Shown here: positions 6 through 4,303 of the stretch, one piece after another
Position numbering within the stretch: the stretch's first letter is position 1
Layout: each line of letters opens with the position of its first letter
IMG/VR virus record: IMGVR_UViG_3300039368_000117
From: a virus
Lineage: Duplodnaviria; Heunggongvirae; Uroviricota; Caudoviricetes
Length of the DNA: 4,426 bases
Direction: 5' to 3' (one strand)
Notes under the pieces: model-generated
What the model was told of the DNA's origin: nothing
Databases searched by the model: none
What the model saw: only the letters and a program-made list of their open reading frames with translations
Made by a program: the position numbers and the translations under genes

Positions 6-452
6 CTATATCAGATGGGCGTCTAAGTTACCAATTCTCGTCTGATGGCTACATACGGCGGTCAGTTTACGCTTACCAGCAGCAGAATCCGTGGGCTGGA
101 AAAGAAGGCTGTTGCGTGATTTATGCTCAATAAAATAAGCCTCCACTCCCAGCAACATCTTTGTATAACCAACACGGGCAGATTTAATCAGATTAACAGT
201 GCGGATCCGGTCATTCCCCATGCTGTTCATGATGGCAACCTGAAACGGCAGTGTTTCCCACCGCCCCGGGGTGTAAGATGACTCTTTCGGAAGGTAATAA
301 TGTCGATCTGCCCACTGAACTGTCGTCAGAGGGACAGGAATTTTTAGCGCAAGGAGGCCGGTTGCTATCGCTCCTGCAGAATTAGCCGCCCTCAGTTCGT
401 CTGAAATCATCAATCCACCTGCGCACATTCTCACCGGCTTCAGAAGCCACAT
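6..452 (-). pseudogene. Terminase large subunit (lambda gpA-like), N-terminal 148 codons ending in an in-frame TAG; probably truncated or disrupted
   Basis: Translation (…TTVQWADRHYYLPKESSYTPGRWETLPFQVAIMNSMGNDRIRTVNLIKSARVGYTKMLLGVEAYFIEHK…) matches the conserved N-terminus of lambda gpA as I recall it. gpA-family proteins are about 640 aa, yet this frame stops at 6..8 (cta on plus = TAG), and the last ~25 residues after PTD do not resemble gpA. Start overlaps the Nu1-like gene as in lambda; the true start may be an internal Met (about 410 or 428) rather than 452. Confidence 0.7.
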
Positions 453-930
453 CGGATGCTTTCGCGATTTCAGTTTTCACAGCATCAAGATGTACGGGTG
501 ATATATCAGGGTATTTACGCTGCAGTGTCTGAGGGACACGGACAAGGATCCCTGATATATTCTGTGCCACTCGCTGAAAGATGTAGGTAAATAACTCCGT
601 CTCGAGGACAAGGCCTTCCTCACGAGCATTTTTCAGCTCCTGTGCATCGGCCTGTGCCTTCGTCAGTCGGTAACGTTCGTAATCAATGGTGCAGGGCTGA
701 AGGTCTGATTCGCTGGCAGCCCTCAAATCCTCGATCTCTTTACGGAGTTTTTCGTTTTCAATATCAGCTTCCCTCTGCGCATACCACTGAATGGCAGCAG
801 TTGTATCAAAAACTGATTCAGTCCCTTTCCCTCCACCAGAAACTAGTGGTAACCCCTGACTCTGCCAGGCGGTGATGGTCCTGACATCAACGCCAAAAAT
901 ATCGGCCAGTTTTTTCTTATTGACGTTCAT
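382..930 (-). CDS. Terminase small subunit, lambda Nu1 family (NohA/NohD-like DNA-packaging protein)
   Basis: 182-aa ORF beginning [28 protein letters not shown] (the Nu1 winged-HTH region), with …[23 protein letters not shown]…[16 protein letters not shown]… closely paralleling lambda Nu1 (181 aa) from memory. ATG at 928..930 is preceded on the minus strand by GGGGGAG. Lies immediately downstream of the cos site and overlaps the large-terminase start. Confidence 0.9.
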
Positions 931-939
931 ACACTCCCC

Positions 940-1099
940 CGGGAACCAGAAAGGATCTGAAAATGGCGTTTTCTAACAAAAACAGCCTTTGTCAGATCCT
1001 TTTATATTTTTAAAATTCTATTGATAATCAATCAGTTAAAAAGAAGAAGAACGGATCTGATTTTTCCCTAAAAATTTTCATAAATAGCGAAAACCCGCG
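940..1099 (-). promoter_or_regulatory. cosB-like terminase-binding region with three TCAGATCC repeats and an IHF-consensus site
   Basis: Minus-strand sequence next to cosN reads CGCGGGTTTTCGCTATTTATGAAAATTTT…CCGTTCTTCTTC, near-identical to the lambda left end from memory. An 8-bp element occurs three times (ggatctga at 953..960 and 1053..1060; tcagatcc at 992..999), resembling the R1/R2/R3 arrangement. AATCAATCAGTTA at 1026..1038 fits the IHF consensus WATCAANNNNTTR. Confidence 0.6.
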
Positions 1100-1111
1100 A
1101 GGTCGCCGCCC
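1100..1111 (-). other. cosN, the 12-nt cohesive-end sequence (GGGCGGCGACCT on the minus strand)
   Basis: Plus strand 1100..1111 is aggtcgccgccc, whose reverse complement GGGCGGCGACCT is exactly the lambda cohesive end. Flank 1112..1145 (ccgtaaccggtcggatcgccggaaaggaccc) resembles the lambda right end / cosQ side from memory. Confidence 0.85.
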
Positions 1112-1317: not shown

Positions 1318-1503
1318 ATGTCATCAAAGAACAGAACCCGCAGAACAACAACCCGCAACATCCGATTTCCAAACCAGATGATTGAACAAATTAACATCGC
1401 TCTTGATCTGAAAGGTTCAGGAAACTTTTCAGCGTGGGTTATTGAAGCCTGCAGAAGAAGGCTGTCAACAGAGAGTTCGGGTATGAATTACATAATTAAG
1501 TAA
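1318..1503 (+). CDS. Small basic ribbon-helix-helix-like protein, homolog of the ORF at the lambda right end (possibly YlcI/DUF3950-like)
   Basis: 61-aa ORF MSSKNRTRRTTTRNIRFPNQMIEQINIALDLKGSGNFSAWVIEACRRRL… has a basic N-terminus, an alternating polar/hydrophobic segment and two short helices, as in Arc/MetJ-type folds. Gene and upstream DNA closely resemble the lambda right-end region next to cos as I recall it. The DUF3950/YlcI name is from memory only. Confidence 0.7.
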   Translation: MSSKNRTRRTTTRNIRFPNQMIEQINIALDLKGSGNFSAWVIEACRRRLSTESSGMNYIIK

Positions 1504-1635
1504 CATGGTGTTCACAGAACACGCAGTTACCGGACACATCAGTTTTCCATTCGCTCCCTGGCAGTACAGGCTTCCCCTCTGACGGGATAGCCTGAAAAAA
1601 TAACACAGAAAATTATTTGTTATAATTAATATAAC

Positions 1636-1776
1636 TTACTCAAAAAAAAGCGACGAGAAAATCAGCATCAACGAACAATAAGCGCCAATACGTGATAACA
1701 AATGGCAGCCATATTTATCTGCAGTATAAGCAATGGACAGGATAACCACTCCAGAAACCGTCAGCATAAAATCCAT
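1636..1776 (-). CDS. Candidate 46-aa hydrophobic micro-protein (unverified small ORF)
   Basis: Hand translation of the minus strand: ATG (plus 1774..1776) preceded by GGGGAAG, giving MDFMLTVSGVVILSIAYTADKYGCHLLSRIGAYCSLMLIFSSLFFE, stop at 1636..1638. Two hydrophobic stretches. Sits in an AT-rich segment; could be chance. Confidence 0.2.
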   Translation of the reverse strand: MDFMLTVSGVVILSIAYTADKYGCHLLSRIGAYCSLMLIFSSLFFE

Positions 1777-2033
1777 TTGAACTTCCCCGGACAAAATCGA
1801 CTCATCTAAAGATTTACAGCTCTTTTTATTATCAATATGTTAAAAGTAAAATAAACAGATGTTCAATAACACGAATACAAAAACGTGCTGAAATTCAATG
1901 AATCCATTTCTGTGTCATCAATTAATAGTGATAAACATCCGGCTTCTTCCACCATCGCACCGGACAGGCGACTATGAGGGGACAACGCCGCGCTCCGTTA
2001 ACGCGGTAAACCCCGGTGTGTGTCGTTTTTGAT

Positions 2034-2098
2034 TATCCCCGCACACTCGCGCAGAGGAGTCTCCCTGTCGGGCTGCGGTCTCTGTTAATGCGGGGATA
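2034..2098. repeat. 10-bp perfect inverted repeat (TATCCCCGCA … TGCGGGGATA) flanking a 45-bp GC-rich spacer just downstream of Rz/Rz1
   Basis: tatccccgca at 2034..2043 is the reverse complement of tgcggggata at 2089..2098. The spacer holds further short palindromes (cgcag/ctgcg, ggag/ctcc). Overlaps no credible ORF. Confidence 0.4.
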
Positions 2099-2126
2099 CG
2101 GCGACAATACCGCGCATCAGCAAAAC

Positions 2127-2585
2127 CTATTTCAGGCACTGAGTGCGGATATAGTCCTGCGCCCCTTCCAGCTGCTTCTGCATCAGCATCAACCGTTCTC
2201 TGAGAGTGAAATAATCCCGTTCAGCGGTGTCTGCCAGTTGGGGGCCGGTTGCATTATCCACGCGGGCGGTGCCGGTGGCTTCACGCACGGGACCTGGACA
2301 GGTGGCGTTGATACGCAGGCGCTTACGACCAGCGGCAACGTCAGCGCGAAGAGTTTCATTTTCAGCTCTCGCATCGGCTAATTCCCTCGAGTATTTTGCA
2401 TCGAGCGCAGCAACATCGCGCTGGCGCACCTGCATATCAGTAATGGTTGCGTTCGCCAGCTTCAGTTCACTGGCTTTGTTATCGCGCTGCGCTTTGTAGG
2501 TAATCGCGTTATCACGGTAATGGTCTGTTGCCATCCACAGCGCTCCACAGGCCACCAGCAGAATAACGATAAACGCGGAAAGCAT
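2127..2585 (-). CDS. Rz-family i-spanin (inner-membrane spanin subunit)
   Basis: Translation …[70 protein letters not shown]…[16 protein letters not shown]…MQKQLEG… is highly similar to lambda Rz from memory, with an N-terminal TM segment. The ORF track starts at GTG 2600; I prefer the ATG at 2583..2585 (152 aa). Confidence 0.9.
2189..2374 (-). CDS. Rz1-family o-spanin (outer-membrane lipoprotein), embedded in the +1 frame of Rz
   Basis: [20 protein letters not shown]… has a lipobox-like LVVSAC followed by the proline-rich [27 protein letters not shown], paralleling lambda Rz1 (…[27 protein letters not shown]…). Entirely inside Rz, the classic arrangement. GAGGGA lies upstream of the ATG. 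Confidence 0.8.
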
Positions 2586-2596
2586 TCGGTTTATGT

Positions 2597-2728
2597 TCAC
2601 CCCAGCAGCCCCGACGAAGACAACATCATCCAGGCCATGGAAAGAAAAAGAGCAACCAGCATTAGTGAAAATGAAATGCCGACAATTACACAGAGGATCT
2701 TCGCCAGCGTTATGAGTTTGTCTGACAT
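2597..2728 (-). CDS. Hypothetical 43-aa single-pass membrane protein inserted between endolysin and Rz
   Basis: ATG (plus 2726..2728) preceded by AGGGAGGA with 7-nt spacing; translation [43 protein letters not shown]; the stop TGA (2597..2599) overlaps the Rz GTG candidate start by 2 nt. The ORF-track version (2597..2818) has a Cys/Gly-rich N-terminal extension that looks non-coding. Confidence 0.4.
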
Positions 2729-2742
2729 GCTTAATCCTCCCT

Positions 2743-2925
2743 TCACGATTTCAACGCAATGACCAGTTTTGCCAGCCCATACAGCATCGGGGACACAGCA
2801 ACACCGACCGCCACCCACTTAATGGCAAAAGCCAGTGCTCTGCTGATGTCATCAGTTACAGGCGCTTTCAGTTCAAGGCCGTTTTTCATAGTCAACCTCA
2901 ACAGAATTCGTTTATACTTTTCCAT
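2743..2925 (-). CDS. Hypothetical 60-aa protein with basic N-terminus and C-terminal hydrophobic segment
   Basis: ATG (plus 2923..2925) preceded by AAGGGAGAAC; translation [60 protein letters not shown]; ends 14 bp upstream of the 43-aa ORF on the same strand. The ORF track extends it to a GTG at 2958. Confidence 0.4.
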
Positions 2926-3081: not shown

Positions 3082-3615
3082 TTATTTGTCAATTCCCCAG
3101 CACGCCAGCGCGCTCTCCTGGTCACGCCGTGAGACCTGTCCATAGCAGTTATTTGAACGAATACGGCAGTCTCTGCCACCGTCCTTAATCCACCAGCGAA
3201 TCGCCTCACATGCTCCCCTGCGATCGCCAGCATTAATTCGTCTGTAAAACGTCGACGGGAAACACTTACCGGGACCAATGTTGTACGGACAGAATGACGC
3301 GATCCCCGCTTTCTGGGGTTCGGTCAATGGCACTTTGATGTTTTTCTCCACCCATGCCAGCGCCTTATCACGCTCAATGGCGTTAACCCGGTCGCATTTT
3401 TCCTTCGACAACTTCATGCCCGGAACGACAGGTTTGCCATCCACCAGGATGGCACCGCGGCAGATGGTCCAGATACCCGCGCCATCACGGTATGCCGTGG
3501 TGTGGTTACCTTCCTTTTCATCCAGAAACTGGTCGAGAATGTCAGGCGCAGGCGCACCAGCGGCAATCAGCGCCAGAACGGCAGCCGACAGGCCGTATCT
3601 GATTTTTGCGTTCAT
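3082..3615 (-). CDS. Phage endolysin, T4-lysozyme-like (GH24) with N-terminal SAR (signal-anchor-release) domain
   Basis: 177-aa ORF with an Ala/Gly-rich weakly hydrophobic N-terminus (YGLSAAVLALIAAGAPA) followed by the E…D…T catalytic motif region EKEGNHTTAYRDGAGIWTICRGA. Resembles phage 21 R21 and Qin/DLP12-type prophage lysozymes from memory. Sits between the pinholin and Rz in a lysis cassette. No obvious Shine-Dalgarno upstream of the ATG. Confidence 0.9.
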   Translation of the reverse strand: MNAKIRYGLSAAVLALIAAGAPAPDILDQFLDEKEGNHTTAYRDGAGIWTICRGAILVDGKPVVPGMKLSKEKCDRVNAIERDKALAWVEKNIKVPLTEPQKAGIASFCPYNIGPGKCFPSTFYRRINAGDRRGACEAIRWWIKDGGRDCRIRSNNCYGQVSRRDQESALACWGIDK

Positions 3616-3720: not shown

Positions 3721-3993
3721 ATGGACAATAACACCATTTCTCTACAGGAGTTGCTCGACAGCATTTCCAGGCTTCGGGAAGACGTGAATACCCTTACCGT
3801 CGCCTTCTCATATCTGGCATTCTCAATTCCAAGGGAACAGATGCAATCAACGCTGGCATCAATCCAGTTTGAATCATGCAATCCCAAATGGTCTCAGGAA
3901 CAACAAGACTCTTTCAGGCGGCTTGCTGTATTACTGGATGAAAAATATGCTGGTAAAATTACCATTTCGGCGGACTCTTCAGAGAACCCGTAA
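3721..3993 (+). CDS. Hypothetical 90-aa protein on the strand opposite the lysis genes (candidate moron)
   Basis: ATG at 3721 preceded by GAGGA (3710..3714) with 6-nt spacing; TAA at 3991..3993; a hairpin plus T-run follows about 43 bp downstream. No family recognised. Overlaps the 3' end of the 114-aa minus-strand ORF by 35 bp. Confidence 0.4.
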   Translation: MDNNTISLQELLDSISRLREDVNTLTVAFSYLAFSIPREQMQSTLASIQFESCNPKWSQEQQDSFRRLAVLLDEKYAGKITISADSSENP

Positions 3994-4303
3994 TTATTCC
4001 CGGTAGTTTTCCTCTGTAGGTTATCAACACATCCTGCGCCTCTAAAATTACGGGGCGCTTTTCCGGCGACTGCTCATCCCCTTCACATAACCCGGCAGCA
4101 ACATCCAGGAAGACCTGTCTGATGCTCCTTCTGGCTGCTGCCTCATAAAACTCCAGCGCGGCACCTTCAACACGGTCCAGCGAGATGTCCAGGTCAAAAA
4201 TTTCACCGTCAAAGCGTTTTTTGTCCCGTAACGCTAAAGTTACCGTAACTTTATTCTCAAAATTGCGGATCCCTTTCACAATCAGTTTATAGTTTTGAGT
4301 CAT
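3959..4303 (-). CDS. Hypothetical 114-aa protein between holin and endolysin (possibly YdfR/DUF1327-like)
   Basis: ATG (plus 4301..4303) lies 4 nt after the holin stop and is preceded by GGGGAGAG; single Met at the N-terminus; soluble-looking sequence MTQNYKLIVKGIRNFENKVTVTLALRDKKRFDGEIFDLDISLDRVEGAALEFYEAAARRSIRQVF…. The YdfR assignment is from gene-order memory of the K-12 Qin prophage (essQ-ydfR-rrrQ), not from sequence recall. Confidence 0.6.
   Translation of the reverse strand: MTQNYKLIVKGIRNFENKVTVTLALRDKKRFDGEIFDLDISLDRVEGAALEFYEAAARRSIRQVFLDVAAGLCEGDEQSPEKRPVILEAQDVLITYRGKLPGIITGSLKSPPKW
4036..4062 (+). terminator. Candidate intrinsic terminator downstream of the 90-aa plus-strand ORF
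   Basis: gcgcctc (4036..4042) pairs with gggggcgc-side cggggcgc (4052..4058, one G-U pair), 9-nt loop, followed by tttt (4059..4062). Lies antisense within the 114-aa ORF. Confidence 0.3.

Follow-up and report, generated by a model that had tools for sequence, protein, structure and literature searches.

In phage lambda a 26-kb late transcript carries the lysis genes followed by the morphogenesis genes, and the differential expression and decay of its segments are not fully explained. Structured RNAs that act from within long phage transcripts are known. RNase III hairpins are found between genes in T7 (the R-sites) and, in lambda, at sib and in the N-leader, and an RNase III site typically comprises about two turns of double-stranded RNA with internal loops. 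The put RNAs of phage HK022, ~70 nt long and located just downstream of the early promoters, act in cis and modify the transcribing polymerase. Prophage small RNAs (sRNAs) of the pR' site lie between Q and the holin gene, measure 50-200 nt, have their own promoters or terminators and are bound by Hfq (PMC4104026); among them, RNAs of the AgvB/AsxR class are 51-60 nt long, lie 3' of pR' and have a 3' region of ~42 nt that is conserved (RF02702/RF02703; PMC4104026). The interval between Rz and cos holds accessory genes in lambda, DLP12 and Qin. This report concerns that interval in a 4,426-nt stretch of viral DNA (IMG/VR record IMGVR_UViG_3300039368_000117; the whole stretch is referred to below as the window), specifically the segment 1504-2126 that separates Rz from ylcI and cos. 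The segment is a mosaic of two independent features with different histories: a GC-rich structured RNA element next to Rz, hereafter the element, and an AT-rich cassette that carries a 46-codon open reading frame (ORF), orf46. Coordinates are collected in Table 1.

The GC-rich element and its predicted fold

The original prediction had divided the segment into an AT-rich and a GC-rich half, the latter with a perfect 10-bp inverted repeat around a 45-nt spacer. Both descriptions hold. The GC content is 0.25-0.42 over 1600-1900 and 0.58-0.60 over 1950-2150, with flanks of 0.55-0.60, and the repeat is located at 2034-2043 / 2089-2098. Such a repeat arises in 148 of 2000 dinucleotide-preserving shuffles of the segment (7.4%), and the fold energy is ordinary, so that the repeat becomes significant only through comparative evidence. 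Comparison with 933W, VT1-Sakai, 1720a-02, the lambda-like phage 1H12 and Salmonella ES18 revealed a shared block of ~180 bp with sharp borders and unrelated flanks, which in the window starts ~7-10 nt past the Rz stop codon.

Relatives of the block were gathered by a scan for a conserved 26-nt pattern, which yielded 120 viral contigs and 80 distinct versions for alignment. These 80 variants share a 42-pair structure in which standard pairs make up 98.1% of 3328 cells and both partners have changed in a compensatory manner at 15 pairs. None of 500 column shuffles reached the observed value on any of five measures, and a control in which the partner was slid by 1-3 columns lowered pairing to 35-61%. 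A second alignment of 91 sequences on the covariance model, with the lambda-type subfamily included, gave the same picture (97.0% paired, 15 compensatory pairs), and one P2b pair is flipped in the lambda-type subfamily (CG58/UG20/GC10). The check for compensatory changes that had been proposed for the inverted repeat thus identifies it as helix P2 of a conserved fold, with helices P3 and P4 inside its 45-nt spacer. Outside the earlier framing, the repeat is one helix of a widespread RNA of about nine helices that is also present in lambda.

Wobble pairs give the polarity of the RNA. The alignment contains 337 G·U cells versus 19 A·C cells, and G·U occurs in at least four sequences at 18 pair positions, whereas A·C reaches that level at none; this excess indicates that the RNA has the sense of the late transcript, that is, of the Rz strand. 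Read as the antisense strand, the same cells would be 88.5% paired rather than 98.1%, with A·C breaking 9.6% of them, and by RNAalifold the Rz strand folds at -35.8 kcal/mol, the antisense strand at -16.0 kcal/mol. The non-coding RNA that had been listed among the possible products is therefore supported for the GC-rich half, both by the covariation and by the strand.

The fold comprises three domains. The 5' domain is one long irregular hairpin, P1 to P4, with about 27 pairs interrupted by a 5 x 7-nt loop and by larger ones. The P1/P2 internal loop, one side of which is the A-rich strand listed in Table 1, may contain an isolated covarying pair (G:C to A:U). The variable middle domain, P5/P6, is exchanged for other short hairpins in lambda-type and L044-type variants. 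Of the seven pairs in the P7 hairpin, five have changed in a compensatory manner (GC54/UA19/GU10 is one of them). When mutual information was used to look for pseudoknots, only lineage-correlated pairs emerged, possible exceptions being a one-pair extension of P6 and the pair in the P1/P2 loop.

Occurrence and genomic position

A search with the GC-rich half (1933-2126) found it at 76-96% identity in 398 phage records, including lambda, 933W, VT1-Sakai and Salmonella ES18. The lambda copy occupies 46864-47035, between bor and lambdap78, and scores 111 bits with covariance model R1; the copy in the K-12 prophage DLP12 occupies 579005-579177, between borD and ybcV, and scores 117 bits. Both lie in unannotated DNA. 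No copy was found by the covariance model in the Qin prophage. By blastn the element is present in 4145 of 5426 complete E. coli genomes (76%), 3095 of which have 80% or more of its length; a single genome may contain it at as many as 11 places. Full-text searches, including searches with the sequence itself, found no description of it; the element is apparently undescribed, though carried by lambda.

The variants form three subfamilies: a main E. coli/Stx (Shiga toxin) type, a lambda/DLP12 type (85 contigs, 13 variants) and an ES18 type from the Salmonella phage. In the searches made, the element is restricted to Escherichia, Shigella and Salmonella. A scan of one genome per species with the exact pattern gave five matches, two of them in Escherichia; the other three are labelled as a Nanosynbacter metagenome-assembled genome (MAG), a Proteobacteria MAG and Thiomicrorhabdus, and two of these are on short contigs that resemble contamination.

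At all of 134 loci the element shares the strand of Rz and lies downstream of Rz and upstream of the packaging genes. It follows Rz directly (9-13 nt) or after an inserted bor (on the opposite strand), rha or 74-aa ORF. At least three types of small terminase lie downstream (Sakai H0025-type, Nu1/cos-type and 933W-type), and ylcI, ybcV or orf46 can be inserted between the element and the packaging genes. The original prediction had placed the whole segment at the bor position. The segment does belong to the Rz-cos interval, but its AT-rich material occupies a second slot, the one bounded by the element and ylcI/cos; bor itself, in lambda, 933W and DLP12, has Rz on one side and the element on the other, and this slot is only ~10 nt wide here. 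Rather than one accessory unit, as had been proposed, the segment consists of a conserved core element and a variable cassette at a different insertion slot.

Copies of the element were also found in other settings. On IncF virulence plasmids its 5' half is kept beside iss, the plasmid homologue of bor, together with pseudogene remnants of Rz/Rz1, as in plasmid pEC9682-1 (L250, 1035-1595); plasmid matches number 615 records, mostly partial and at 80-90% identity. One viral contig (L013) has two copies in the same sense, at 5053-5237 and 6003-6187, 950 nt apart, which bracket the 74-aa ORF found between Rz and the element in O157:H7 prophages. This double copy is consistent with cassette gain by recombination at the element.

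Signals and known RNA families

In a consensus scan neither promoter-like nor terminator-like sites appeared on the sense strand, whether within 1935-2120 or beside it, and the upstream flanks are non-homologous between loci and hence lack a conserved promoter. From this anatomy, the RNA would be made by read-through from pR'. A search for known RNA families, which had been suggested as a check, returned none: with Rfam 15 a scan of the whole window at E <= 1 gave nothing in 1504-2126, and a scan of 1900-2150 at E <= 10 gave only chance matches of 12-18 bits (two microRNA families and twister-P5).

Several described RNAs were considered and rejected as identities for the element. It lies downstream of Rz and not at pR', and the window has no match to RF02702 or RF02703, which speaks against AgvB or AsxR. 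EcOnc06, EcOnc13 and EcOnc32 are candidates by size (~177, ~187 and ~112 nt), but map between Q and the holin gene. The lambda sRNAs LPR1/PreS, LPR2 and 6S are located elsewhere. A classical Hfq-dependent sRNA gene is likewise not supported by the scan, in which the strand of the RNA has neither a promoter nor a terminator of its own.

The AT-rich cassette and orf46

The sequence that the window shares with other prophages breaks off at 1931-1938; it picks up again within the 3' end of ylcI (~1452-1472) or at cos. Members of the ylcI family (window 1318-1503(+) compared with L140 6109-6336) share their first ~48 codons and have wholly divergent C-termini, a divergence that places one mosaic breakpoint of the variable cassette inside the gene. 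A search with 1504-1940 found the cassette in 734 of the 5426 complete E. coli genomes at 95-100% identity and in two phage records only. Its GC content is atypical, it sits between conserved genes, and other loci carry alternative cassettes or none, all of which are characteristics of morons; judged by its sequence, the AT-rich half is an exchangeable cassette of the moron type. At other loci a 113-aa TonB_C lipoprotein or ybcV/DUF1398 is found in its place, or the slot is empty. In contig L016 the lipoprotein gene (750-1091(-); Pfam TonB_C, E = 1.4e-14) is in the orf46 slot and runs in the direction of the late genes.

Upstream of orf46 a 44-nt AT-rich block is nearly unchanged between divergent alleles (Table 1), which makes it a candidate promoter or operator region. 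A short weak hairpin separates the convergent ylcI and orf46.

As predicted, the segment contains no ORF of 60 aa or more; the only such ORF that touches it, 2016-2381(+) of 121 aa, extends outside and is antisense to Rz. The 46-aa hydrophobic ORF and its GGGGAAG ribosome binding site are also present, orf46 being the ATG-started part of ORF 1636-1794(-). Hydropathy analysis places hydrophobic stretches at residues 3-17 and 30-45, and the central loop, ADKYG..LLSRIGAYC, is invariant. An alignment check of its conservation, also part of the earlier proposal, showed orf46 to be intact in three allele classes and in well over 1,000 contigs. Compared with the most divergent allele (E. coli SHP24, surrounding DNA 81% identical), there are 12 synonymous and 13 non-synonymous differences where ~6 to 19 are expected (dN/dS ~0.28; binomial p = 0.008 for the synonymous excess), and the O157:H7 allele differs by two synonymous changes only. 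The suggested small-protein gene is supported in this way for the AT-rich half. No match to orf46 was found in Pfam, PHROGs or NCBIfam, and a profile search of 1.84 billion representatives returned only its own cluster and fragments thereof.

That orf46 is no gene, and that the AT-rich half is spacer or regulatory DNA or the decaying remnant of an older gene such as bor, is an unlikely alternative in view of these data. It would account for the lack of a family or of a relative outside E. coli and for the truncated and frameshifted versions that occur, and AT-rich DNA readily gives hydrophobic ORFs. It would leave unaccounted for the intact frame in all three allele classes, the synonymous excess, the invariant loop, and a ribosome binding site that is kept or, in O157:H7, improved. 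Similarity to Bor or to other genes of the same position is lacking as well: tblastn with the Bor proteins of lambda and 933W (~97 aa) against 1504-2126 at E <= 10 gave no match, and neither did searches of the segment with lambda p78/YbcV, YbcW, Rha and the small proteins of Qin. The decayed remnant offered in the original prediction thus finds no support, and by these searches the segment is not a remnant of bor. Overall, orf46 probably encodes a real small membrane protein on an exchangeable moron-type cassette limited to E. coli prophages, as far as the sequence comparisons indicate.

Taken together, the comparisons confirm what was observed in the segment and support its earlier interpretation in part.

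Layout of the window

The window corresponds to a lambdoid prophage late region with the late genes on the minus strand, as judged from annotation and from ORF and profile searches. In the order of the late strand it contains the C-terminus of a holin, a YdfR-like ORF, the lysozyme gene, two small membrane ORFs, Rz and then the segment; beyond it follow ylcI, cosN, a Nu1-type small terminase and the start of the large terminase. The cosN sequence (AGGTCGCCGCCC) is the reverse complement of GGGCGGCGACCT, the cohesive-end sequence of lambda. The segment is 100% identical in many E. coli chromosomes, among them ML35, VR50 and BEN2908. No tRNA genes, tmRNA genes or tandem repeats were found in the window.

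Other features were observed upstream of Rz. The two small ORFs between lysozyme and Rz, 2597-2728(-) of 43 aa and 2743-2925(-) of 60 aa, are hypothetical in the annotation of the Prokaryotic Genome Annotation Pipeline (PGAP) and match PHROG 4906 and PHROG 1115, two families with no known function. A GC-rich hairpin at 2950-2995 (CCCCGCTTGCAGCCAACAAACGGGG), in the gap that separates the lysozyme gene from the small ORF after it, is flanked by an A-run and a T-run and resembles an intrinsic terminator for both directions within the late operon; it was picked up through a low-scoring match to the rimP leader (25.6 bits, below threshold). A 90-aa ORF at 3721-3993(+), a PGAP hypothetical without a Pfam match, is opposite to the late genes and overlaps the 3' end of the YdfR-family gene 3959-4303(-).

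Table 1 Features of the window, with positions numbered from its first nucleotide.
Feature	Position	Strand	Basis or remark
Structured RNA element, ~186 nt	1935-2120	minus	Covariance model R1, 212 bits; homology borders
5' domain, one long irregular hairpin P1-P4	2020-2110	minus	
P1	5' arm 2104-2110 / 3' arm 2020-2026	minus	Example pair UA38/UG38/CG3
P2 + P2b	2088-2098 / 2034-2044	minus	Example P2 pair UA48/UG35/CG6
P3	2073-2077 / 2050-2054	minus	
P4	2070-2072 / 2063-2065	minus	
A-rich single strand AUCAAAA joining P2 to P1	2027-2033	minus	Nearly invariant; opposite 5-nt strand 2099-2103
Variable middle domain P5/P6	1978-2014	minus	
P5 (encloses P6)	2012-2014 / 1978-1980	minus	
P6	2002-2006 / 1988-1992	minus	Compensatory changes in 4-5 of 5 pairs
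P7 hairpin	1937-1965; arms 1959-1965 / 1937-1943	minus	15-nt loop with invariant GGAAGAA
Exchangeable AT-rich cassette	~1473-1930		Homology breakpoints (blastn)
orf46, 46 aa	1636-1776	minus	PGAP hypothetical WP_000347013.1 (RefSeq)
Shine-Dalgarno-like GGGGAAG	1782-1788	minus	5 nt upstream of the orf46 ATG; GAGGAAG in O157:H7
AT-rich block upstream of orf46, 44 nt	1822-1865		Almost invariant between alleles with 81%-identical surroundings
Sigma-70-like site	1813-1841	plus	Promoter scan; directed away from orf46
Short weak hairpin between ylcI and orf46	1508-1522		Terminator-like on the minus strand
Lysozyme gene	3082-3615	minus	
Rz i-spanin gene	2127-2600	minus	Pfam Phage_lysis, E = 5e-50; annotation
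Rz1, nested inside Rz	2189-2374		Annotation
ylcI/ynfO-family gene (DUF3950)	1318-1503	plus	Opposite strand to the late genes
cosN	1090-1101		Read directly from the window letters
Nu1-type small terminase	382-930		

Proposed role of the element and alternative explanations

The element, its strand, structure and position, and its presence in lambda are established by the comparisons above. Its RNA would form a domain of the Q-dependent late polycistronic transcript from pR' and would act, in cis or once excised, where the lysis portion of the late mRNA meets the morphogenesis portion. The likeliest roles would be those of a nuclease-processing site or stability barrier, or of a protein-binding site, by which the fates of the two mRNA segments may be uncoupled. 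The length and irregularity of the P1-P4 hairpin, together with junction strands that do not vary and a loop that is conserved, suggest more than a simple stabilising stem. For the whole reading, namely a structured RNA of the late transcript that presumably acts in cis, combined with an exchangeable moron-type cassette carrying orf46, a probability of roughly 0.72 seems appropriate. The specific function as a processing site, decay barrier or protein-binding site separating mRNA segments is a tentative and on balance doubtful proposal. It is less likely still, though conceivable, that the element represents a new functional class of RNA in lambdoid late operons, either a processing module that cleaves itself or guides a nuclease, or an RNA that binds protein or serves as a decoy. 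Such an RNA would set the balance of lysis and head genes or act on the host late in infection, and would have been overlooked for 40 years in the best-studied phage.

Several observations weigh against the combination of a late-transcript RNA with an orf46 cassette. The window copy is predicted to fold no more stably than shuffled sequence (z = -0.41), the division of the variants into three subfamilies means that many of the counted cells are not independent events, and P3 and P4 are backed only by conservation and wobble pairs. The summary of a lambda study using RNA interaction by ligation and sequencing (RIL-seq; bioRxiv 10.1101/2024.10.31.621285) reports sRNAs bound by Hfq at other places only: LPR1 between ea10 and ral, and LPR2 and 6S near pR'. 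The bor-cos interval of lambda is non-essential (PMC10695390, Table 1), so that any role of the element is likely to be accessory or quantitative. For orf46, the selection signal rests mainly on one divergent allele, no homologue was found outside E. coli in searches of 5.8 billion clustered proteins and 1.84 billion representatives, and the promoter scan gave no convincing minus-strand promoter.

Alternative explanations of the GC-rich half invoke the other strand of the DNA, the DNA itself, an encoded protein or an RNA that acts in trans. A product of the window plus strand, either an antisense RNA or the 3' untranslated region (UTR) or terminator of the leftward morons (ylcI, ybcV/p78), perhaps bound by Hfq, appears improbable. 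On the other strand ylcI or ybcV ends, at many loci, right beside the 3' edge of the element (stop codon 17 nt or 1-13 nt from it, respectively), and that strand has a U5 run (UCGUUUUUGAUUAU). The run is, however, 11 nt from the nearest strong hairpin, and the antisense strand pairs less well, as described above, with an alifold energy under half of the sense value. The strong peaks EcOnc10/11/12 obtained by Hfq cross-linking and analysis of cDNAs (CRAC) are also on the antisense strand (Tree et al. 2014, PMC4104026, Table S2), and the coordinates taken without correction would put EcOnc11 within the core of the element in Sakai prophage Sp10. The position of AgvB according to Rfam in the current Sakai record is nevertheless ~140 nt off the coordinates of PMC4104026, and the peaks shift with it; EcOnc11 then corresponds to the canonical terminator of a ylcI-like gene (L140 5947-5976, minus), 9 nt beyond the element. 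This ~140-nt shift between NC_002695.1 and NC_002695.2 rests on a single landmark (AgvB) 5 kb away. No EcOnc peak is present in the Sp3 copy of the element in Sakai, the data being from uninduced cells in which the late transcript is absent, and the ylcI-like 3' UTR carrying the shifted EcOnc11 is not homologous to the window. As an observation in its own right, and only after the shift, EcOnc10/11/12 appear to represent the 3' end and terminator of the ylcI-like mRNA (ECs_1967) at L140 5947-6013 (minus) in Sp10, the same RNA being present in Sp9 and Sp12; if the shift holds, this suggests an Hfq-bound RNA from the 3' UTR of a ylcI-family gene.

An element that works as DNA, as a homology linker for the exchange of lambdoid modules or as a protein-binding site, would explain why variable cassettes on both sides make it an anchor between two insertion hotspots, why one contig has two copies around the 74-aa ORF and why the plasmid iss locus keeps half of it. 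DNA homology leaves the 15 compensatory pairs and the one-sided G·U excess unexplained, and this explanation likewise seems improbable; the DNA and RNA roles are compatible, and the conservation of the element may lead to recombination there as a side effect. That the GC-rich half codes for a small protein is very hard to maintain. An ORF of 55 aa, 1972-2139(-), matches PHROG 6954 'Rz-like spanin' (E = 1.4e-14), 81-aa ORFs carry the same label in some phages, and several phage records annotate an ORF here, a further call over the element being L005 1444-1689. Yet the length of the element varies (171-193 nt) and does not keep to multiples of three, close relatives differ by indels of 1, 2 and 10 nt, a fully open sense frame of any kind is found in only 35 of the 80 variants, and substitutions follow base pairing. 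PHROG 6954 is best explained as spurious ORF calls over a conserved non-coding element, its name probably being an annotation artefact. A late-strand RNA may alternatively be excised and act in trans, as a sponge or decoy for Hfq or host sRNAs or, more speculatively, as a mimic of the repeat hairpin of type I-E CRISPR (clustered regularly interspaced short palindromic repeats), which we consider rather unlikely. The 3' arm of P2 with its next bases, GCGGGGAUAA, is identical to 10 nt of the E. coli I-E repeat, and the element is limited to Escherichia, Shigella and Salmonella. If paired, the P2 sequence is nonetheless free to vary (CCGGGAAUAA in lambda, GCAAUGAUAA in ES18), which argues against sequence-specific mimicry; because the stem varies in this way among subfamilies, the likeness to the CRISPR repeat is treated as a coincidence. 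An RNA anti-CRISPR, that is, a mimic of a solitary I-E repeat, was also rejected as an identity: only 10 nt are shared, a 45-nt insert replaces the tetraloop and the stem varies by subfamily. As for Hfq, two invariant A-rich single strands, AAUCAAAAAC and GGAAGAA, are of the A-R-N type, a motif that Hfq binds according to PMC4104026. Against a role in trans, the sense strand has neither a terminator nor a defined 3' end, and no Hfq peak at the element appears in the summary of the lambda RIL-seq study or in the list of Tree et al. (PMC4104026).

Read as a structured domain of the late transcript, the element is a concrete, testable candidate at the lysis-packaging junction, one that is carried by lambda, by Stx-converting phages and by three of every four complete E. 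coli genomes. For annotation, it implies that the ORFs called over it, including PHROG 6954, are probably spurious. It is also a reliable landmark between two moron slots that hold bor/iss, rha, ybcV, the TonB_C lipoprotein and orf46. The latter, already annotated as hypothetical in RefSeq, adds one more candidate to the small membrane proteins restricted to prophages.

Comparison with known systems

The cassette resembles the morons bor and lom and the small proteins YbcV, YbcW, YlcI, YnfN, YnfQ, YnfR and GnsB in that it has an atypical composition and is located in the Rz-cos interval. In contrast to bor, lom and the K-12 small proteins, orf46 points in the direction of the late genes and has no sequence similarity to any of them. 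With type I toxins (Hok, Ldr, TisB) and with small holins and pinholins it shares a length below 60 aa, strong hydrophobicity and a prophage location beside the lysis cassette. Unlike the type I toxins, which have one transmembrane helix and a charged tail, orf46 has two short hydrophobic stretches. No antisense RNA overlapping it was found, the only promoter-like site on the opposite strand (1813-1841, plus) pointing away, and no toxin family matched in Pfam, NCBIfam or PHROGs.

Like the prophage sRNAs AgvB, AsxR, StxS and STnc100/PasD, the element is non-coding and resides on lambdoid and Stx prophages. It differs from the pR'-site sRNAs in lying downstream of Rz, and the segment matches none of their Rfam models; in Sakai Sp10, AgvB and STnc100 are ~5 kb upstream of the element (AgvB ~4.8 kb, by Rfam). 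With HK022 put, a cis-acting RNA of two hairpins, it shares the character of a hairpin RNA of a lambdoid phage within the nascent transcript. In contrast to put, the element lies ~2 kb down the late operon, is found together with Q antiterminators and has no sequence similarity to it. By analogy to the RNase III processing hairpins, the element is an irregular hairpin between cistrons that lacks its own promoter and terminator, with ~27 bp and internal loops in P1-P4. It differs from them in its larger size, its three domains, its invariant single-stranded junctions and its conserved loop.

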